This document shows, in pieces, positions 19,862 to 43,024 of a stretch of 64,000 nt of DNA. How positions within the stretch are numbered: position 1 is the first letter of the stretch; each line of letters begins with the position of its first letter. Source of the stretch: Chloroflexota bacterium (GTDB taxonomy: Bacteria > Chloroflexota > UBA11872); contig CBDBOH010000003.1 of NCBI GenBank assembly GCA_965208215.1, positions 1,761,259-1,825,258 of the forward strand, written 5' to 3'. Both the position numbers and the translations under genes were made by a program. The notes under the pieces were generated by a model, which saw nothing but the letters and a program-made list of their open reading frames with translations, was not told where the DNA came from and searched no databases.

Positions 19862-20165
19862 GTCGGCGTTCGCGAAAGCTCGGTCATGCGCATGGACGAC
19901 GGCTACCGCGCCTACCGCAACCGATGTCCTCTCCTGCAGGGTCCCGTGTGCACGGGTCCCGTCAGCGGCACCCGGGTCGCCAACGCCAATGCCGACAGGC
20001 TTCCAGTCTGGGACCTGAAAGGCCGCATGCTCATCTGCGCCTGGCACAGCATGAAGTTCGAGCTCGACACCGGACGCTGCCTCCGTGCCCGCGCCGAGCG
20101 CCTGCGCGCATATCCCGTCGAGTTGAGCGAGGATCAGGTGTTTGTGCTGATTGGCCGACGGCCAT
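19862..20165 (+). pseudogene. Degenerate Rieske ferredoxin remnant
   Basis: Colinear with 44315-44710, but CPHQQG has become CPLLQG (first His ligand lost) and the N-terminus is missing. Confidence 0.8.
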
Positions 20166-20269
20166 GTGCCGGACCTGGCGGACAACGCTCTCGGTCTACA
20201 AAAGAACCGCATCAGGGGCTACGATTGGCACCCTGTCCGTGCCAAGCCACGACTAGCAAGGGTCGCCCG

Positions 20270-21421
20270 GTGGTTGAAGTGCCAGTCAGCTCCGCAGACG
20301 CAGCAAACCCTGCCGTTGACGAAGTCGACGATGAGCAGGACCTTGGTGTCGAACCTGAACGAGATGCGTCGCAGATTACGCATCCGTTCAAGCCAGAGCA
20401 GATTAAGATCAGCACCGACCAGACAATTGTCGATCTTATGGTCTCGCGCATTGACCATAAGGCAATTGACTTGTCACCTGACTTTCAGCGACACCGGGGC
20501 ATCTGGAGCTATGAGCGACGGAGTCGGCTAATTGAATCGCTGCTGCTGCGAATCCCAATTCCGGTGTTCTATGTGGCTGCCGATGAATCTGATAACTGGT
20601 CAGTTGTCGATGGTGTGCAACGCATGTCCACAATCTACGACTATGTGACTGGTTCATTTGCACTCAATCGTCTACAGTATTTGACGGACTTGGAGGGGCT
20701 AGTATTTGAAGATCTGCCATGGTCGATGCAGCGAAGAATCAGGGAAACTACATTGATTGTCAATGTGATTCAGCCAGGCACTCCTCCTGAGGTGATGTTT
20801 AATATCTTCCTCCGTATCAATACTGGAGGAATGGTCTTGAATGCCCAAGAGATTCGTCACGCACTCCATCCGGGACCAGTTCGCGAGTATCTGAGCAGAC
20901 TTGTAGAGTCGGAGGAATTCAAGCGTGCGACTGATGGATCAATTAATCCAAAGCGAATGTCGGACCGCGAGTGTGTACTTCGCTTTTTGGCATTTTATAT
21001 CGACGGATGGGAGTCTTATTCGGAGAACAACTTAGATGGTTATCTGGGTTCCGTAATGGAAAAGCTAAATAGGATGTCCATGATAGAACGTGAGAATATC
21101 TTTGTGGAGTTTAAGAAGGCGATGCGGGCGGGATTTGAGATCTTCGGCTTGAATGCGTTCCGCAAGCCGCCCCAAGATGGTAGGTTTCCGATCAATAGAT
21201 CGTTGTTCGAAGCGTGGGCTGTGCAATTCGCGCGGTGCCCAGATTCTCAATTGAGGATCCTTGTCGAACGAAGGGATGCTGTGCAGGCTAGCTTTCGCGA
21301 ATTGATGACTGAAGATGAGGACTTCAATCGGTCGGTTTCGCTCTCAACTGGTGCGCCAGCTCGGGTGAGGAAGAGGTTTGCGGAGATAGAATATCTAGTT
21401 CAGGAGATTGTAGAGTGCTAG
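20270..21421 (+). CDS. DUF262 (GmrSD-N/ParB-like) protein; Menshen NsnA-like
   Basis: PDFQRHRGIW, SRLIESLLLRIPIP, VVDGVQR, FLRINTGG. Probable GTG start at 20270 with AAGGG upstream; the frame is open back to 19886. Confidence 0.85.
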   Translation: MVEVPVSSADAANPAVDEVDDEQDLGVEPERDASQITHPFKPEQIKISTDQTIVDLMVSRIDHKAIDLSPDFQRHRGIWSYERRSRLIESLLLRIPIPVFYVAADESDNWSVVDGVQRMSTIYDYVTGSFALNRLQYLTDLEGLVFEDLPWSMQRRIRETTLIVNVIQPGTPPEVMFNIFLRINTGGMVLNAQEIRHALHPGPVREYLSRLVESEEFKRATDGSINPKRMSDRECVLRFLAFYIDGWESYSENNLDGYLGSVMEKLNRMSMIERENIFVEFKKAMRAGFEIFGLNAFRKPPQDGRFPINRSLFEAWAVQFARCPDSQLRILVERRDAVQASFRELMTEDEDFNRSVSLSTGAPARVRKRFAEIEYLVQEIVEC

Positions 21422-22533
21422 ACAGAATCAAACTCTCGAATTTCAAGTGCTTTGAGCAGTTGGACTTGTCATGTGGTCCACTTAATCTTCTTTGCGGATT
21501 AAACGGTATGGGTAAGAGCAGTGTAGTGCAGGCTTTACTCGTACTTCGCCAGTCCTTTGAGACCCGTGAATTGCTTGAAGGTCGTCTAGTTCTTGGGGGA
21601 GAGCGCGTTGATCTTGGAGCGGGTGCTGACGTTTTATATGAAGATGCCAGACTGGCGTCGATTGGATTTGAAATACGGAGTACCGAGGTCGAAGATCCTC
21701 TGGAGTTGGACTTCAGATACTCAAGGACTTCTGATCAGCTGACAGCGCTCGTCTTTAAGGCCCGGGACTATTTGCCGATCGCGTGGCGTGGTGTTCCGCC
21801 GTTCGGTGGCAATCTCGTGTATGTGAATGCAGAGCGCGTGGGCCCGAGGAAATTGTTCCCACAGTCGGAGGTAATGGCTAACCAAGCAGACTTTGGCACG
21901 AGCGGTGAATTCGCGTGGAATTATTTGAGCAGCCGACAGAACGATGTGCTAGATGTGGATGATCCCCGATGTATGGTCGGAAATGAGCGCAGGCTGCGAG
22001 ATGTCGTTGACCAGTGGATGCAAGACGTGAGTCCCGGGGTGCATTTGCATCTGCAAGAGATTCCAGCTGCTGATGCCATAATTCCTAGTTTCTCATTTGA
22101 CCGTCCTGGTGATGTCCCGACGCGTCCCTTTCGCGCAACGAATGTCGGATTCGGACTGTCATACGTATTGTCGGTGATCCTTGCACTCCTCTCACCGGCA
22201 GGCACACTATGCCTAATTGAGAACCCAGAATCGCACCTACATCCACGTGGACAGACGAAGCTTGCTGAACTAGCGGCTCGGGCAGCGCTTGCCGGAGTTC
22301 AGGTATTTGCGGAGACCCACAGCGACCACTTCATGGACGGCATCCGCATCGCTGTGCGTGATGGACTGATCGCGCCAACGGACGCATATTTTAATTACTT
22401 TGAGCGAGACGGGGGCAAGGCACTTGTGTCGTCCCCCGACATAGACTCGGACGGTCGCTTGTCTCACTGGCCGATCGGCTTCTTCGATCAGCACGAGGAG
22501 AATCTAGCAAGGCTACTCGCGCCGAGATCCTGA
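21415..22533 (+). CDS. AAA_21/ABC-type ATPase with C-terminal DUF3696; Menshen NsnB-like
   Basis: LSNFKCF, GLNGMGKSS, NVGFGLSYVL, IENPESHLHPRGQ, ETHSDH, WPIGFFDQ; overlaps the upstream stop. Confidence 0.88.
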   Translation: MLDRIKLSNFKCFEQLDLSCGPLNLLCGLNGMGKSSVVQALLVLRQSFETRELLEGRLVLGGERVDLGAGADVLYEDARLASIGFEIRSTEVEDPLELDFRYSRTSDQLTALVFKARDYLPIAWRGVPPFGGNLVYVNAERVGPRKLFPQSEVMANQADFGTSGEFAWNYLSSRQNDVLDVDDPRCMVGNERRLRDVVDQWMQDVSPGVHLHLQEIPAADAIIPSFSFDRPGDVPTRPFRATNVGFGLSYVLSVILALLSPAGTLCLIENPESHLHPRGQTKLAELAARAALAGVQVFAETHSDHFMDGIRIAVRDGLIAPTDAYFNYFERDGGKALVSSPDIDSDGRLSHWPIGFFDQHEENLARLLAPRS

Positions 22534-22534
22534 A

Positions 22535-23491
22535 ATGCGCGAGATGATATTAAATCACGCAAGTCTTGATGCGCCAAATAAGAGAGCTGCACTTGGTTGG
22601 TTGAAAGGCATGGCTGCTGGCATGTCCGCACTTTTGTGTGAGAAAGTAGTCTCAAGCCACCTTCGAATGCAAGAGTCTCAAGACGAGATACACTGCCTAC
22701 CTAACTGGACGCTGGCGGAAGCTTATCGAGAACTTCGGCACGAAGGGGCAAGGGACGAGTATCTGTTTCTGGTGAGACTGAGCTCCAAAGTCCCACTCTT
22801 GAGCGATGTTAGTGAGAAGGTTATTAGCCGTTTTCGTGGTTGTGAGGACAGAACTCTACCCGCAGGGACAGGAGATCCACTTGTCTTGTGCGCCATAACT
22901 GATGGAGTGGCGGTAGGGTTTCCGTCAGATTCGACATGGGTTCGCGATGAATTGACTGTCACATTTGATGAGCTGCTCTACGATGGTGAGATTGAGACGG
23001 CAGTAGAGTCCATTGATAATCTGACTAGAGAGTGTCATGCTTGCTCAATCTGCGCAAGACACCGTCAGAATGTACGGCACAAAATAGGCAGTCCAACAGA
23101 TTTGTGGCAGAGCAGGGAGTCTGCCTTTCCCAACCTGCTATTCTCGTCCGACGTGGAGACTCAATTGAATAGTTTGCAGCTGTCGCTACTACAGATTGTT
23201 GTTAAGAGACTGATTGGTTTGGACGAGTCTGTCGGTGAATGGCGGAGGCAGCGGACTGCTATGCCGCGGTGGCGTTCAAAGATAACGTCTGAGAGCAGGT
23301 CGGTGGTGGTAGATAATTCGCTTCGTTCAGCTCGTCGATTTCGGTCAATTGGAGGTAACTTTGAGCTTTTTATGTGGCACGCAAGATATGGAAGCGCAGG
23401 CAGAATTCACTTTCGTGTGGATGGAAGTAGATTTGAGATAGAGATCGGCTATATTGGCAACAAGCTACCGACGGCCAAGTTTCGAACCTGA
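22535..23491 (+). CDS. Hypothetical effector with a putative C-terminal RelE-like domain; Menshen NsnC-like
   Basis: Third gene of a tight AT-richer operon; C-terminal TSES...FMWHARYGSAGRIHF...IEIGYIGNKLPT. Confidence 0.7.
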   Translation: MREMILNHASLDAPNKRAALGWLKGMAAGMSALLCEKVVSSHLRMQESQDEIHCLPNWTLAEAYRELRHEGARDEYLFLVRLSSKVPLLSDVSEKVISRFRGCEDRTLPAGTGDPLVLCAITDGVAVGFPSDSTWVRDELTVTFDELLYDGEIETAVESIDNLTRECHACSICARHRQNVRHKIGSPTDLWQSRESAFPNLLFSSDVETQLNSLQLSLLQIVVKRLIGLDESVGEWRRQRTAMPRWRSKITSESRSVVVDNSLRSARRFRSIGGNFELFMWHARYGSAGRIHFRVDGSRFEIEIGYIGNKLPTAKFRT

Positions 23492-37098: not shown

Positions 37099-37368
37099 AT
37101 GAAGGAATACACTGCGACCACCACCCAGCGCAACCAGGTCACCATCCCGGCCGCGGTTCGACGACTGCTGGGCATCAAACCCAGGGACAAGGTGGCCTTC
37201 ACCATCGACGACACGGGCACGGTTCGGCTGGCCGCCGCTCAATTCACCCTGGAGTCCGCCTACGGCTCCGTCCGGCCAACCGCGCAGCCAGAGGACTTTG
37301 AGCAGTTGTCCCGAGACGCCAAGGACGAAAAGGCCATGGCCACGGCACGCGAATTGCATGGGGAATGA
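37099..37368 (+). CDS. AbrB/MazE/SpoVT-family antitoxin
   Basis: TQRNQVTIPAAVRRLLGIKPRDKVAF; ATGA overlap with vapC. Confidence 0.9.
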   Translation: MKEYTATTTQRNQVTIPAAVRRLLGIKPRDKVAFTIDDTGTVRLAAAQFTLESAYGSVRPTAQPEDFEQLSRDAKDEKAMATARELHGE

Positions 37369-37778
37369 AGTTCCTGGACACCAATGTCATCCTGAGATTC
37401 CTCACCCGCGACGACGAGGAGAAGGCCGCGGCATGCTTCCGGCTCTTTCAGCGGGCGCAGCGCGGCGAAGAGGAGATCCTGACCTGCGAAGCGGTCGTCT
37501 GCGAAGTCGTGTATGTCTTGTCGTCGCGGCGTGCGGGCTATGGCCTCAGCCGCGAGGCCATCCGCGGTCGCCTGGCGCCGATCCTCACGCTTCGAGGACT
37601 CCGGCTTGCCCAGAAGCGTGTCTACCTGCGGGCGCTGGACATCTATGCGGCGTCGCCGTTCCTTGACTTCGAGGACGCCCTGGCGGCGGCTCACATGGAA
37701 CGGCACGGTATTTCGGAGATTGTGAGCTACGACTGTTGCTTTGACCGGGTGCCTGGCCTGCAGCGGGTCGAGCCGTGA
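37365..37778 (+). CDS. vapC: VapC/PIN toxin
   Basis: FLDTNVILRFL, VVCEVVYVL, DFEDAL, SYD. Confidence 0.9.
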   Translation: MKFLDTNVILRFLTRDDEEKAAACFRLFQRAQRGEEEILTCEAVVCEVVYVLSSRRAGYGLSREAIRGRLAPILTLRGLRLAQKRVYLRALDIYAASPFLDFEDALAAAHMERHGISEIVSYDCCFDRVPGLQRVEP

Positions 37779-37902: not shown

Positions 37903-38685
37903 ATGATCGGCGCGATCATTGGCGACATCGTGGGGTCGGTGTACGAGTGGCGGCGGATCAAGACCAAGTCGTTCGAGTTTTTCGTCGACCAGTGCGAGTG
38001 CACGGACGATTCGATCTGCACGGCCGCCGTGGCCGACATCCTGATGCACGACCGTCCGCCCGCCCAGACGCTTCAGCGGTGGTGCCGGGAGCACCCGCGC
38101 GGCGACTACGGGGGCAGGTTTGCCGAGTGGATCTGGATGGATCCGCCGCGTCCGTACGACAGTTTTGGCAATGGCGCGGCCATGCGGGTTTCGCCGGCGG
38201 CTTACCTGAACCGCGACGGCGACTTGTCGATTGCGCTGGAGGCGTCAGACCTGGTGACCGCCGTCACCCACAACCACCTGGAGGGAATCAAGGGCGCCCG
38301 CGCCACCGTGCACGCGATCTGGCTGGCCTTCCAGGGCGAGCCGGCCGCTGCCATTCGCTCGGCAATCACCGATACCTACGACTACGACCTGTCCCGCAGC
38401 GTCGACGACATCCGCCCCGGCTATCGCTTCAACGAGATCTGCCAGACGACAGTGCCGGAAGCCATTACCTGCGCCCTGGAGTCCGAGAGCTTCGAGGACG
38501 CCATTCGCAATGCCGTCTCGCTGGGCGGCGATTCCGACACCCTGGCGGCCATCGCGGGTCCGATTGCCGAGGCGTTGCACGGAATTCCCGCCGACATCCA
38601 GACCGAGGCCGAATGCCGGTACATCCCAGAGGACATCCTGACCATAGTCCGTGAGCTGTACGGCATAGCCAAACGCCATTCCTAA
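37903..38685 (+). CDS. ADP-ribosylglycohydrolase (DraG/ARH family)
   Basis: GAIIGDIVGSVYE, TDDS, SFGNGAAMRVSP, THNH, GGDSDTLAAIAG. Confidence 0.92.
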   Translation: MIGAIIGDIVGSVYEWRRIKTKSFEFFVDQCECTDDSICTAAVADILMHDRPPAQTLQRWCREHPRGDYGGRFAEWIWMDPPRPYDSFGNGAAMRVSPAAYLNRDGDLSIALEASDLVTAVTHNHLEGIKGARATVHAIWLAFQGEPAAAIRSAITDTYDYDLSRSVDDIRPGYRFNEICQTTVPEAITCALESESFEDAIRNAVSLGGDSDTLAAIAGPIAEALHGIPADIQTEAECRYIPEDILTIVRELYGIAKRHS

Positions 38686-38784
38686 CGTCACTGTTAAGAC
38701 TCTAAGGTCTCTTATCTATTCAAACTTACTTGCCACATTGGTAATACGTGTATTAGGTATCTAGATTCGACAGATCCAAACTGA

Positions 38785-40371
38785 CTACGGATGACGTCCA
38801 ACCCAACCGACAATAGTTTTATTCAAATTTCTGTCTAGGCAGAAGTATATGCGAACCAGACGATTGGGTGACGTACTGTCATTCGGTTTTAGATGATCTT
38901 CAAACTGGCGCTTCATTGCTGAGCCGTCATCCCACGTTCTCTTCCTCATCTCCGCTGGCGAGTTTCGAATTGTATCACTCTCCGGTGAATAAGTGACATT
39001 TCGCTCTTGGAGCCACTGTCGCATTGACATCCCGAGCGAGCCATTTCCTCGAAGAAGTGCGGTCAATGTGTCAAGTTCGTCAAGATAACGCGCAATTTTC
39101 TTCGGCGGCCCAGCGTCCGAGTCCAAATCTTCGATGCCTCTTAGTACGTCGTCTCCAAAGGTCAAGTGCTTACAAGTGTCCATTGCACCATAAACAACCT
39201 CCTCAACGGTTAGATCATCTTCGTCAACTTCCTCCACTAAGTCAGGAGTGCTTGACTCGCTTCCCTCTTGCTGTTGCCACCTGATCGTGATCAGCAGTTG
39301 GCGATTCTGGTCTTTAAGTCTATCTATTTCATCGTTCAATTCCTTACTTTGATCTTGGATGTGATCATGTAACTTCTCGATCATTTCTTCGCGTTCCTCC
39401 AATTCTGTCCGGAGGGAATCATTTTGTCGTTCATAGTCTTGAGCCAACTTCATAAAGCCATCAGCGTCTCTGGCTTGCCTGCGCTGATCAACAAAATACT
39501 GTTCTCTAATTCCGGCGATAAGTTTATGCGATGTTTGGAATGCCGATTGCTCGAAAACTATGCGGCGAATCTCATTCCGTATGCGAGTGGCTGCTTCGGC
39601 TGAGCTAACGCCGCCGCGATGTAGGCCATAGTAGGTCCAGAAGCGGTGAGTAAAGGGATGATTAATGGTGTCGCGGAAAGGCCAATAGAGTCGAATAGCA
39701 CCCGCGTAGCAAGACCAGACGCTTCCTTTTGATTGCGAGAGCACCCAGGAAGCATCGCGGTCGATCTCGACCACGTTTGCGAGACCTTCTAGATCATAGG
39801 CCAAGTCTCTTGAAAGAGTAGGGTGTAGAGCAGAACCATAACGGTGGGAGATCACGACTATCGGCAATCCTCGGCTGACACTCCAGATTGCGTCGATAAG
39901 ATCGCGACCATCGTCGCGCCCGGCACAAAGGACGTGCTTCGATAATGCGTGGCTTGCACCTGATTGCCAGGTTCTTGATTGAACGATGTTCCGGACAGCT
40001 CGAGGGCATCTCACCTCGAAAGAGACTGGCGCAAGTGCGGAGGCTGACGTCACCGTGCCAAGTCGACAAGAAAGGACGAGTTGGCTAGAGCTGCAGGCTA
40101 AGTCTATATGCGTCTCAAATGCGCCGTCTTTGATAGGTTCAGTTAGCACAAATGATTCTAGAGTTCCGTCCGCAGTCTGGAGTTGCTCTCTAGTTAAGTG
40201 TGCGACTCGGCCATCTGGAAAGGCTACGTCTCGACGTCCGAGGCTCGTGTCCTGTGCGCCTTTCCAGTTAAGCCAATCTTCCACCATTCTGACACTGGCG
40301 GCCAATTCCGTTGAAGCTGTTCCATCGTCCTGAACAGAGCTACCAAGCGAGTATGAACCGACGATCCGCAT
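38785..40371 (-). CDS. Hypothetical 528-aa protein with a coiled coil and a putative C-terminal RelE-like domain
   Basis: AT-richer, AGGAG RBS. LPIVVIS...SCYAGAIRLYWP; coiled coil from LAQDYERQ to DQNRQLL; C-terminal SPES...FEDHLK...RIYF...IVGWVGRHP. Confidence 0.8.
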   Translation of the reverse strand: MRIVGSYSLGSSVQDDGTASTELAASVRMVEDWLNWKGAQDTSLGRRDVAFPDGRVAHLTREQLQTADGTLESFVLTEPIKDGAFETHIDLACSSSQLVLSCRLGTVTSASALAPVSFEVRCPRAVRNIVQSRTWQSGASHALSKHVLCAGRDDGRDLIDAIWSVSRGLPIVVISHRYGSALHPTLSRDLAYDLEGLANVVEIDRDASWVLSQSKGSVWSCYAGAIRLYWPFRDTINHPFTHRFWTYYGLHRGGVSSAEAATRIRNEIRRIVFEQSAFQTSHKLIAGIREQYFVDQRRQARDADGFMKLAQDYERQNDSLRTELEEREEMIEKLHDHIQDQSKELNDEIDRLKDQNRQLLITIRWQQQEGSESSTPDLVEEVDEDDLTVEEVVYGAMDTCKHLTFGDDVLRGIEDLDSDAGPPKKIARYLDELDTLTALLRGNGSLGMSMRQWLQERNVTYSPESDTIRNSPAEMRKRTWDDGSAMKRQFEDHLKPNDSTSPNRLVRIYFCLDRNLNKTIVGWVGRHP

Positions 40372-40394
40372 TTAGGCTCCTCTTTTCGCAGGCG

Positions 40395-40620
40395 TTACCG
40401 TTGCTTATTGGCGTCCGATTGCCCTACGGCTGGCCAAGTGTGACCGTAAACTTTGATCTCTTCGAGCAGGCATCCAAGCAGGTCGGCATCCTGCTGGGCG
40501 TAAGGGACGAGGCGCGCGATTGGTTCGCCTTGAATGGTGGTAGTCAGACCATTGGTCTCAAGTTGGGTCCGACAGTGTCATCCACTGGGACTTGAGCCGC
40601 GCAGCCGCAATCGTGCGCAT
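40395..40620 (-). pseudogene. Frameshifted Phd/YefM antitoxin (second copy)
   Basis: Not in the ORF track. GGAG-ATG gives MRTIAAARLKSQWMTLSD, then a +1 shift gives QLETNGLTTTIQGEPIARLVPYAQQDADLLGCLLEEIKVYG. Colinear with 41091-41315. Confidence 0.8.
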
Positions 40621-40782
40621 GCAGCTCCTGCCTCGAGGGAAACGTGTCAATTCACACTATATGACTCGTGGAAAAAGCTGTCCATGTAGCATGTGCTAAT
40701 GGCCCTCACTGCATTGTTTCGCCTGCCGGAGCGTGTAGCCGTTGTACTTGCGTCGTGTGTCCCTGGAGGCGGTGGTGTTGAC

Positions 40783-40948
40783 CGCTTCAGCGCGTCAAGC
40801 ACCTCATGCGCAGCGTTGTGCCCCTGCGCGCCCGTGACCTCGCCGCCGGGGTGGGTGCCGTCGCCGCAGAGGTAGAGGTTCTTGATCGGCGTCCGGTAGT
40901 CCGACCACCCGGGCAGTGGCCGGCGCGACATGATCTGCTGCGGCACCA
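40783..40948 (-). pseudogene. Duplicated 3' end of the FAD oxidoreductase at 41477-43024
   Basis: PQQIMSRRPLPGWSDYRTPIKNLYLCGDGTHPGGEVTGAQGHNAAH is nearly identical to the C-terminus of the full gene. Confidence 0.9.
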
Positions 40949-40949
40949 C

Positions 40950-41066
40950 TTCGCCGAAGCCCTCCACGGTATCCTGACGGACATTGGAGCCCAAGCCGAA
41001 AACCGCTACGTGCCGAACGACATCCTCGAAGCGGTCCGGAAGATGTATTGCGAGGCGAGCGGCTAA
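40950..41066 (+). pseudogene. Duplicated 3' end of the ADP-ribosylglycohydrolase
   Basis: FAEALHGILTDIGAQAENRYVPNDILEAVRKMY aligns with IAEALHGIPADIQTEAECRYIPEDILTIVRELY at 38563-38685. Confidence 0.85.
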
Positions 41067-41090
41067 CGCCGAGGATAAGCGCGTGGGATA

Positions 41091-41315
41091 TCAAGACTCG
41101 GCGTCGGCGTTCCACCGGACTCCGGTTGTCAAGATGTCACCCGTAATCCTGATCTTGTCCCGCAGGCTCCCGATTAGTTCTGCATCCCCCTCGGCATAGG
41201 GCACGACCCGCGCGACGGGCTTGCCGCCCTTGGTAATGATCAGGCCATCGGAGTCGAGCTCGTCCAGCAACACGAGGCAATGAGCCTTGAACCACGCGGC
41301 CTCAATCGTCCTCAT
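41091..41315 (-). CDS. Phd/YefM-family antitoxin, orphan; only a 'LDTHALI'-like vapC stub follows at about 41065-41095
   Basis: MRTIEAAWFKAHCLVLLDEL...IITKGGKPVARVVP; downstream gtcttgatatcccacgcgcttatc reads as a frameshifted LDTHALI. Confidence 0.85.
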   Translation of the reverse strand: MRTIEAAWFKAHCLVLLDELDSDGLIITKGGKPVARVVPYAEGDAELIGSLRDKIRITGDILTTGVRWNADAES

Positions 41316-41476
41316 GCCGTTCCTCAGTCAACCGGAATTCAGCCGGATCGCACATTGTGTCCGGCGACAAGACCAGCGATCGACGCCGCTCCAATGCCCG
41401 GCCTCGCAGACCTTCGCAGCTTCCGCGCCGCTCGAATCCCGCGCTGGGCAGAGGACGGCAACTGGCCGACTCGCGC

Positions 41477-43024
41477 CTACCGCCCCAGCTCATCCAGCAC
41501 CACATGCGCCGCGTTGTGGCCTGGGGCGCCGGTTACCTCGCCGCCGGGGTGGGTGCCGGCGCCGCAGAGGTAGAGGTTCTTGATGGGGGTGCGGTAGTCG
41601 GACCAGCCGGGGAGGGGGCGGCGGGACATCATTTGTTGGGGAATCATGTCCACGTGGCGGATGTTGCCGTCGGTCAAGCCGATGCGGTCCTCGATGTCCT
41701 CGGGCGTGAGCATGGTCCAGTCGATGATGGCGTCCCTGAAGTTGGGGGCGTAGCGGCAGAACTCGTCGATCAGCTTTTCCCCGAACTCCTGCCGCTTCTC
41801 CGACCACGTGCCTTCCTTGAGGTGCGCCGGCACGAAGAATACCCACATGGACAGCACGTGCTGTCCGTCGGGCGCCACGGATGGGTCGTAGACGGTCGGA
41901 ATCTGCACCTGGATGACCGGTGTTTCGGGAAGCCGGCCGTTCGTGGCGTCGAACCAGCTCGACTCGCAGTAGTCCGTTGAGGGGGCGAGATTGATCATGG
42001 ACAGGTGTTTGGGGTCGTAGTCGTCGCCCAGGTGGCGCGAGAAGTCGGGCAACTCGCGCAGCGAGCAGAGGAACTTGACCGAGGCGGACTGCGTCTTCAG
42101 CGCTTCGACTTCGTCCACGACGTCCTGGTCCACGTCGTCCCCGTCCAGCAGCTTGGTGAAGGTGCGCTTGGGGTCGGCGTTCGAGAGGACCAGGTCGGCC
42201 TCGATTACCTCGCCGTTCGCCAGCTCCACGCCGGTGGCCTGGCCGTACTCGGTCAGGATGCGGGACACCTCCGCACCCGTGCGGATCGACACCCCCACCG
42301 ACTCGGCGGAGCGGGCCATGGACTGGGTGATGGACCCCATTCCGCCGCGCACGATGCCGTAGTTCTCCGTGTCCTCGCGGTAGGCGCTGAAGCGGTAGAG
42401 CGCCATGATGTAGGCGCTGCCGGGCGCGCTGAGGTTGCCCATGTCGATCGCGCCGATGCTGGCCATCGCCCGCATCTCGTCGGAGACGAATGTGCGGTCG
42501 ATCAGGTCACGAACCGGAACCGTGAGAAGCGTTTCCAGCAGCTCTTCTTCCTCCTCGTCCCTGAATCGCTCGGTGAGCTCGGCCAGGGAAGGCGGCGGCT
42601 GCAGGTAGTAGTCGCTCAGAATCCGCACAGCGCGGTGCCAGAAGTTGGCCCAGTCCAGCCAGGCCTCGGCGTCCTCGGGCGAGAACTGGCGAATCTCTTC
42701 CGCCGTCTTCTCGTCGTCGTGCCACAGCCTGACGGCGCGCCCGTCGGGAAACGGGTGCAGGCGGCCCGGGTCCAGGGGGTAGACGTGGAACCCGTGGTTC
42801 CGCAGCTCCAGCTCGTCGATCACCTTCTGCTGCAGGATGTGGCACACGTAGGAGCAGGTGGAGATGTGAAAGCCGGGAAACCACTCCTCGGTCACGGCCG
42901 CGCCGCCCACCACGTCGCGGCGCTCCAGCACCTGCACGTCCAGCCCGGCCCGGCCGAGATACCCGGCAGCCACCAGCCCGTTGTGCCCGCCGCCGACGAT
43001 TACGACTTTCTTGTTCCCGGCCAT
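41477..43024 (-). CDS. NAD(P)/FAD-dependent oxidoreductase, phytoene dehydrogenase-like
   Basis: VIVGGGHNGLVAAGYL, LERRDVVGGAAVTEE, GGMGSI, NLYLCGAGTHPGGEVTGAPGHNAA. Start at ATG 43024. Confidence 0.92.
   Translation of the reverse strand: MAGNKKVVIVGGGHNGLVAAGYLGRAGLDVQVLERRDVVGGAAVTEEWFPGFHISTCSYVCHILQQKVIDELELRNHGFHVYPLDPGRLHPFPDGRAVRLWHDDEKTAEEIRQFSPEDAEAWLDWANFWHRAVRILSDYYLQPPPSLAELTERFRDEEEEELLETLLTVPVRDLIDRTFVSDEMRAMASIGAIDMGNLSAPGSAYIMALYRFSAYREDTENYGIVRGGMGSITQSMARSAESVGVSIRTGAEVSRILTEYGQATGVELANGEVIEADLVLSNADPKRTFTKLLDGDDVDQDVVDEVEALKTQSASVKFLCSLRELPDFSRHLGDDYDPKHLSMINLAPSTDYCESSWFDATNGRLPETPVIQVQIPTVYDPSVAPDGQHVLSMWVFFVPAHLKEGTWSEKRQEFGEKLIDEFCRYAPNFRDAIIDWTMLTPEDIEDRIGLTDGNIRHVDMIPQQMMSRRPLPGWSDYRTPIKNLYLCGAGTHPGGEVTGAPGHNAAHVVLDELGR

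Follow-up and report, generated by a model that had tools for sequence, protein, structure and literature searches.

We analyzed a window of 64,000 nucleotides (nt) of DNA from a Chloroflexota bacterium (contig CBDBOH010000003.1) in which an intact gene on the minus strand, at 38785..40371, encodes a 528-amino acid protein that is, by sequence, a member of HEC-07, an already described family of single-gene antiphage systems. With a probability of about 0.78, the gene encodes an HEC-07-type single-polypeptide antiphage protein with an RNase tail, and the frameshifted phd antitoxin gene just upstream of it (phd') is incidental. The earlier note on this DNA had described a self-contained sensor-effector defense protein that occupied the toxin slot of a phd operon and could not be assigned to a named system. 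The sensor-effector description is supported; the other two statements have to be given up. A claim to novelty also fails, because the family is already described in PADLOC-DB v2 and in a 2024 preprint, an outcome that the earlier note had itself named as counting against it.

Membership of the 528-amino acid protein in the HEC-07 family

The open reading frame (ORF) is as originally called, running on the minus strand from an ATG at 40371 to a stop codon at 38785-38787, with an AGGAG sequence 7 nt 5' of the ATG. The PADLOC HEC-07 model PDLC04161 matches amino acids (aa) 95-527 of the protein to model positions 119-547 of 553 with an E-value of 6.5e-42, followed by PDLC04159 (E 2.5e-14) and more weakly by PDLC04160 and PDLC04158. 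HEC-07 is one of nine candidate systems embedded in Hma systems (Payne et al. 2024, bioRxiv 10.1101/2024.01.29.577857), and Hma embedding was the criterion by which it was discovered. In their description an AdoMetDC-like N-terminal domain precedes a thioredoxin-like domain that lacks a CxxC motif, and the protein ends in a RelE-like domain in which a histidine is conserved; they likened this tail to the RelE-family toxin HP0892. Plaquing in Escherichia coli was lowered by seven of the nine candidates; because the failures were named as HEC-01 and HEC-09, the HEC-07 representative was, by implication, active against phage.

A word-indexed search returned 16 relatives of 24-74% identity, and the full-length homologues are 34-74% identical to the window protein. 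When a profile of 16 homologues was run against 1.84 billion cluster representatives it found 5023 proteins, 766 of them at E ≤ 1e-30, most of the 5023 being colinear over their full length with the same architecture. A scan of one genome per species gave 56 loci from many bacterial phyla and several archaea. At one of the homologue loci (L050, 2969-11122) the genes for HmaA, the HEC-07 homologue and HmaB stand in that order, both Hma matches having E = 0, and at another (L032, 4819-9218) hmaB lies directly 5' of the homologue. Because these homologues sit within Hma genes, the family to which the window protein belongs is truly the Hma-embedded one. The window copy itself has no Hma genes around it, and the PADLOC HEC-07 model does not require them.

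The window protein resembles the family (PDLC04158-04161) in being encoded by a single gene for about 510-550 aa, in its β-rich N-terminal domain and thioredoxin-like domain lacking CxxC, and in a RelE-like C-terminal domain whose conserved histidine stands two residues from the C terminus. The window copy differs in that it lies outside Hma, alone between an oxidoreductase gene and an ADP-ribosylglycohydrolase (ARH) gene in a high-GC genome.

Predicted domain architecture

The AlphaFold models reproduce, as predictions, the three-part HEC-07 layout of Payne et al. The full-length model, built on a 16-sequence alignment, has a predicted local distance difference test (pLDDT) score of 82. Its N-terminal domain (aa 1-108; 40048..40371, minus strand; pLDDT about 79-95) is an antiparallel β-sheet on one helix, presumed to be the sensor part. 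Foldseek gave weak matches of the PsbP, DcrB and EagT6 type for this domain (E 5e-3 to 0.07). AdoMetDC-like is the label of Payne et al.; our fold search gave PsbP/DcrB-type matches, not AdoMetDC.

The second domain (aa 124-250; 39622..40002, minus strand) is a predicted thioredoxin-like α/β domain without CxxC, recognized by Foldseek and by its invariant columns. It matches the thioredoxins 5nyo_A (template modeling [TM] score 0.57, E 0.011) and 1thx (TM 0.62, E 0.10), with Foldseek probabilities of 0.97-1.0 despite the weak E-values. The 528-amino acid protein has only two cysteines, C148 and C221, and the most conserved motif of the family, W-S-C221-Y-x-G-A-I-R227-L-Y-W-P231, lies in this domain. 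A helical region with a coiled coil follows (aa 257-370; 39262..39603, minus strand), delimited by DSSP and by the pLDDT of the model: helices span aa 257-302 and a single unbroken helix spans aa 307-370, upholding the coiled coil proposed before, to which Pfam adds only weak coiled-coil matches (TPR_MLP1_2). Scanning the full protein with Pfam and NCBIfam turned up nothing of use past that weak coiled coil. A linker predicted to be disordered (aa 368-385) leads from the coiled coil to the C-terminal module.

A C-terminal effector module shared with Menshen NsnC

The last part of the protein (aa 389-528; 38788..39207, minus strand) forms an effector module with a predicted RelE/BECR-like fold, delimited by the model, Foldseek, hhalign and conservation. 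Within the window there is a second carrier of this module, the NsnC protein of a Menshen system (22535..23491, plus strand; identified by PADLOC and hhalign). The NsnABC genes occupy 19886-23491, with PADLOC E-values of 2e-137 for NsnA, 8e-99 for NsnB and 7e-56 for NsnC. Four PADLOC NsnC models also match the last 125-160 residues of the 528-amino acid protein (from aa 368/388 to 527, that is, its tail only), two at about 1e-10 and two weakly. When HEC-07 and NsnC family profiles were aligned with hhalign, the match had a probability of 97% and an E-value of 1e-10 over 123 columns, and the alignment pairs exactly the motifs that the earlier note had quoted. No significant match between HEC-07 and NsnC came from pairwise BLASTP, and only a weak one from hhalign of HEC-07 against the single NsnC sequence; both proteins had to be represented by family profiles before the link was clear. 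The proposal of a C-terminal parallel with the protein at 22535, and of one effector family in two architectures within the window, holds on these matches.

The homologous portion amounts to the last ~135 residues, over which the His-Arg-His positions align, and the shared motifs read LxFGxDV ... ES ... F-x-x-H ... R-I-(Y/H)-(F/L) ... (V/I)-G-(W/Y)-(V/I)-G-x-H. The two proteins differ elsewhere. In NsnC the N-terminal domain is an inactive PIN domain, and the protein acts together with NsnA (ParB/DUF262) and NsnB (an ABC ATPase), whereas the 528-amino acid protein has its own N-terminal domains and coiled coil and is without nsnA/nsnB neighbors or conserved partners.

In a comparison of 29 diverse C-terminal modules no residues but His493 and His527 were invariant; His527 sits in the motif GWVGRH-P. 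The conserved C-terminal histidine corresponds to H543 in the HEC-07 protein tested by Payne et al. His493, Arg507 and His527 are candidate catalytic residues on the strength of this conservation, Arg507 being replaced by serine in some subfamilies. The near-C-terminal histidine of the module is reminiscent of YafQ and HP0892.

The RelE-like character that had been proposed for the C terminus is only partly sustained by Foldseek. Modeled alone, aa 385-528 reach a pLDDT of 92.5 and a predicted TM score of 0.88, and the top four Protein Data Bank (PDB) matches are all RelE toxins (2khe, 9g12_B, 3g5o_B and 4fxe_E), but these matches are weak (E 0.27-1.7, Foldseek TM 0.43-0.49). HigB (5ycl) and HigB2 (5ja8) stand lower in the list, which overall spans E 0.27-4.6 and TM 0.32-0.49. 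The ranking of the modeled fold is suggestive, but the matches lack statistical significance. A Foldseek search against viral structures found nothing. Pfam searches of 13 C-terminal modules at E ≤ 10 reached no RelE-type family, PDB sequence searches with one sequence and two profiles gave helical-repeat noise only, and no curated RelE, ParE, YafQ, HigB or Gp49 model or solved toxin was matched by the module sequence in Pfam, NCBIfam or the PDB.

In comparison with the RelE/YafQ/HigB toxins (HP0892, 4LTT; YafQ, 4NRN; RelE, 4FXE), the likeness lies in a predicted small α/β RNase fold, for which they are the best PDB fold matches. The differences are that there is no detectable sequence similarity, that insertions lengthen the HEC-07 module by about 50 residues, and that the HEC-07 tail shares one chain with a sensor of about 385 aa and is not neutralized by a separate antitoxin. 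Li et al. (2025, NAR, PMC12065111) assign the effector domain of NsnC, termed PB-BECR1, to the RelE/YafQ-type BECR superfamily. RelE/BECR membership of the HEC-07 tail is backed indirectly, by its homology to PB-BECR1 and by the exchange of the tail for a Gp49 domain in a homologue considered below.

Alternative tails on the HEC-07 scaffold

A homologue from Anaeromyxobacter oryzae (L055:7740-9194) has the HEC-07 scaffold with a tail that matches Pfam Gp49, a HigB/RelE-family domain, at E 3.9e-9, above the curated cut-off. This domain stands in the same place, showing that the effector slot is interchangeable. Proteins of about 450 aa form a subfamily that retains the N-terminal scaffold of HEC-07 together with the coiled coil but has, in place of the RelE-like tail, a Cys/His-rich domain of about 75 aa with the motif GExRFYKK..DCGH..W..DKAxKG..HCxxCTGGGxWKVxW. 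Its members are encoded at loci L011-L018 and L024 (e.g. L011:7908-9293) and include proteins P0015, P0138 and P0147-P0157. The Cys/His-rich tail had no match in Pfam or PDB sequence searches. The homologue at L032 ends in another unclassified C terminus (...YEGKRSWQVRI).

It is probable, with rather less assurance than we attach to the antiphage role itself, that the HEC-07 scaffold is a polymorphic single-chain platform that swaps effector cassettes with other defense systems. Most members would then carry the His...His module of Menshen NsnC, at least one a Gp49/HigB-type domain, and a sizeable subfamily the Cys/His-rich domain. The homology between the HEC-07 and Menshen effectors and the polymorphic effector slot, including the unannotated Cys/His-rich tail, were noticed here as by-products of the analysis; neither the HEC-07/Menshen link nor the tail polymorphism appears in the main text of Payne et al. 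or of Li et al.

These tails also bear on whether the C-terminal module is a nuclease at all. The protein could be a defense protein with a binding or signaling tail and with its toxicity elsewhere, for instance in the thioredoxin-like domain with its invariant Cys221. That the strongest motif of the family is in the thioredoxin-like domain and not in the tail would suit such an arrangement, as would the weak RelE fold matches and the change of Arg507 to serine in some subfamilies. However, two histidines are invariant over very diverse tails, and the tail is exchanged for a Gp49/HigB-family domain or for another small domain, a pattern expected of effector slots, so we consider a non-nuclease tail quite improbable.

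phd', probably a decaying orphan antitoxin

The frameshifted phd pseudogene phd' (40395..40620, minus strand) was located by tblastn and is identical in four per-run assemblies. Its first frame starts with an ATG at 40620, reads MRTIAAARLKSQWMTLSDPT and ends with TGA at 40560-40558. The sequence then continues in another frame as LETNGLTTTIQGEPIARLVPYAQQDADLLGCLLEEIKVYG... (LETNGLTTTIQGEPIARLVPYAQQDADLL...) and ends with TAA at 40397-40395; this latter portion shares 44% identity with the intact phd at 41315-41091 (tblastn E 5e-11). The read-through product reached no Pfam model. From the stop of phd' to the ATG of the HEC-07 gene the spacer is exactly 23 nt, the distance originally given. The four assemblies come from separate runs of one sample, and across 38600-41500 they agree with zero differences. 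Since they are identical, neither the phd' frameshift nor the junctions described below can be put down to a single slip of assembly, and an assembly artefact as the source of the frameshift and the duplication was rejected.

The intact phd, the sister copy (41091..41315, minus strand), encodes 74 aa (Pfam PhdYeFM E 1.3e-5; NCBIfam phd_fam) and is an orphan that has no toxin gene behind it. What follows it after 24 nt is the stop of a convergent ARH gene fragment (40950-41066, plus strand), with no PIN gene, so that the DNA contradicts the statement that the start of the HEC-07 gene matches the position of a vapC in the sister copy. A search of the window for a third phd found none, and there is no vapC beside the sister phd. 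The single vapC of the window (37365-37778, plus strand) has a PrlF/MazE-type antitoxin as its partner, not Phd. This PrlF/MazE-type antitoxin gene and the vapC (PIN) gene overlap by 4 nt at 37099-37778 (plus strand), just beyond the full-length ARH gene, and the pair has 79-94% protein identity in the syntenic loci.

Phd/YefM antitoxins pair with RelE-fold toxins such as YoeB, and the 528-amino acid protein might accordingly be an enlarged RelE-type toxin that is, or formerly was, neutralized by the upstream Phd, the frameshift having left the toxin unguarded or having silenced the operon. The known YefM/YoeB type of partnership is in its favor, as are the closeness of phd' on the same strand, its stop being 23 nt from the ATG, and a promoter-like site 5' of phd'. 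Yet phd' is frameshifted in all four assemblies and its read-through product has no Pfam match. In the two syntenic loci with a 74%-identical HEC-07 gene (L001 and L002) phd is degenerate, a weak remnant (31% identity, E about 2e-4) for which no gene is called, and in a third, L007, HEC-07 lies upstream of an intact phd. When both phd sequences were compared with the 62 fetched loci by tblastn, L007 was the sole match at E ≤ 0.01, so that among all these loci phd was found only there and as the L001/L002 remnant. No gene family recurs beside the HEC-07 homologues, and an identical junction of orphan phd and ARH exists without HEC-07 in the sister copy within the window. Because the position of HEC-07 relative to phd varies, the upstream phd is broken and distant homologues lack phd, we reject the toxin-antitoxin interpretation as very improbable, and with it the place as toxin in a phd operon that the earlier note gave the protein.

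On this comparison phd' belongs to the insertion site, as an orphan antitoxin gene in decay, and is not the partner of HEC-07; at most it is a promoter donor, and HEC-07 does not depend on it to function. The spacing of 23 nt would be an accident of insertion, because HEC-07 is found on either side of phd and distant homologues are without it. A sigma-70-like match, TGGACA-17-TATAGT (40656..40684, minus strand), lies 5' of phd' and may drive transcription of the HEC-07 gene; it is a consensus match, and three such promoter-like sites were found in the region where 1.7 are expected. The intact orphan phd genes of the window (41091-41315) and of L007 (L007:2375-2599) are 79% identical, each 23-24 nt from a convergent ARH stop; where HEC-07 has inserted downstream of phd, the phd copy carries a frameshift or is degenerate.

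The insertion hotspot

Read along the minus strand, the order of genes is an oxidoreductase gene (43099-41477), phd, a fragment of a second ARH gene (ARH'), an oxidoreductase gene fragment, phd', HEC-07, ARH, and the PrlF-type antitoxin/vapC pair (37099-37778, plus strand). In L001 and L002 the order is oxidoreductase, phd remnant, HEC-07 and ARH. In L007, a Chloroflexi metagenome-assembled genome with a HEC-07 protein of 54% identity, it is oxidoreductase, HEC-07 and intact phd, with ARH 23 nt on. Between these syntenic loci the HEC-07 proteins are 54-74% identical versus mostly 79-94% for the flanking proteins. Two flanking sequences fall below that range, at 68% for the oxidoreductase 3' end of L007 and 57% for the ARH copy of L002. 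The GC content of the window HEC-07 gene is 0.50 versus 0.65 in its flanks, and in all eight loci measured the HEC-07 genes (0.50-0.60) are lower than their flanks (0.64-0.70). Composition and synteny identify the HEC-07 gene as a horizontally acquired cassette at a chromosomal hotspot. There are only two low-GC islands in the window, Menshen at 20-24 kb and HEC-07 at 38.7-40.7 kb, and both are defense loci.

The left border of the hotspot is the full-length ARH gene (37903..38685, plus strand; Pfam ADP_ribosyl_GH E 6e-33), which is convergent with HEC-07 and syntenic in L001, L002 and L007. ARH' (40950..41066, plus strand) is a 3' fragment recognized by alignment to this full copy, 33 residues aligning to aa 221-253 with 61% identity. 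The full FAD amine-oxidoreductase gene (43099-41477, minus strand) is likewise accompanied by a duplicated 3' fragment comprising the last 57 codons (40782..40952, minus strand), which has a weak Amino_oxidase match and an identity to 41479-41641 of 84% at the protein level and 83% at the DNA level. The ARH' and oxidoreductase fragments abut at about 40951. The region takes the form of a homeologous tandem duplication (40782-41066 and 41091-41641), oxR-phd-ARH' followed by oxR'-phd'-HEC-07-ARH, and it looks as if DNA from the locus of a relative had been integrated through two joins, one homologous and the other illegitimate.

Defense context of the homologues

The Menshen system lies 15 kb from HEC-07 in the window. 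Around the homologues, PADLOC matches, which are reported per family and not per gene, comprise HmaA/HmaB and an HKD+Snf2 helicase among 92 immediately neighboring proteins, and HerA, DrmMI, IetA, type IIG restriction-modification and PDC-S65 models among 59 proteins of the far flanks. At L003 the homologue has a GmrSD-type gene upstream of it, and a vapBC-like pair lies on its downstream side. A conserved neighbor gene was sought in about 56 homologue loci and none was found.

The lack of a conserved partner gene, together with homologues such as those at L005 and L006 that have metabolic neighbors only, would be compatible with a horizontally acquired stress-response or RNA-turnover enzyme without a role in phage defense, carried as a selfish or neutral cassette. 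We think this unlikely. Family members are embedded inside Hma systems, flanking genes of homologues match other defense models (including the GmrSD-type gene in L003), one family member defends E. coli, the effector module is common to Menshen, and hotspot behavior with divergence of alleles is typical of defense genes.

A proposed mechanism and its implications

In the mechanism that we propose for the HEC-07 protein, the N-terminal β-sheet domain and the thioredoxin-like domain would be the sensing and regulatory half. The helix of about 64 residues would form a coiled coil that probably dimerizes the protein and passes the signal on, and the flexible linker would lead to the C-terminal module of about 140 aa, a putative RNase of the RelE/YafQ-type BECR group with a His493-Arg507-His527 set. 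In uninfected cells the RNase would be kept inactive, and a phage cue at the N-terminal half would free it. We infer that the freed enzyme would cut RNA of translation, either mRNA on the ribosome, as RelE, YafQ and HigB do, or another RNA. Cutting would halt phage production, possibly at the cost of cell growth.

Several observations weigh against an antiphage protein with an RNase tail. The 528-amino acid protein is distant from the PADLOC seed, the best model leaving its first 94 residues uncovered, and the defense assay in E. coli used another HEC-07 member. There is no catalytic HEC-07 mutant in Payne et al. 2024, and RNase activity is what we infer for the tail. The Foldseek matches of the module to RelE toxins are statistically not significant at E 0.27-1.7, and the module is without a sequence match in Pfam, NCBIfam or the PDB even with family profiles. 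Finally, many homologues stand among ordinary metabolic genes, L005 and L006 being examples.

For annotation, the gene is a second antiphage system in the window besides Menshen and should be labeled HEC-07-like and not as a Phd/toxin pair. The locus illustrates how a cassette lands at varied places in one hotspot with a resident orphan antitoxin decaying alongside. The shared putative RNase module and the alternative tails offer mutational targets (His493, Arg507 and His527) and a natural domain-swap series, which would be useful for learning how the mechanistically uncharacterized HEC-07 family is switched on.

Two further observations concern the neighboring Menshen island. In the NsnC protein of the window residue 310 is lysine, where 28 of 30 homologues have the histidine that is the third residue of the proposed His-Arg-His triad, and the Menshen effector of the window may be altered or weakened by this Lys310. 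The ORF that holds NsnA (19886-21421) has weak Rieske [2Fe-2S] similarity in its first ~90 aa, the NsnA model begins at aa 149, and the drop in GC at the island starts near 20200. It seems that the Menshen island inserted within, or directly beside, the end of a gene for a Rieske protein.

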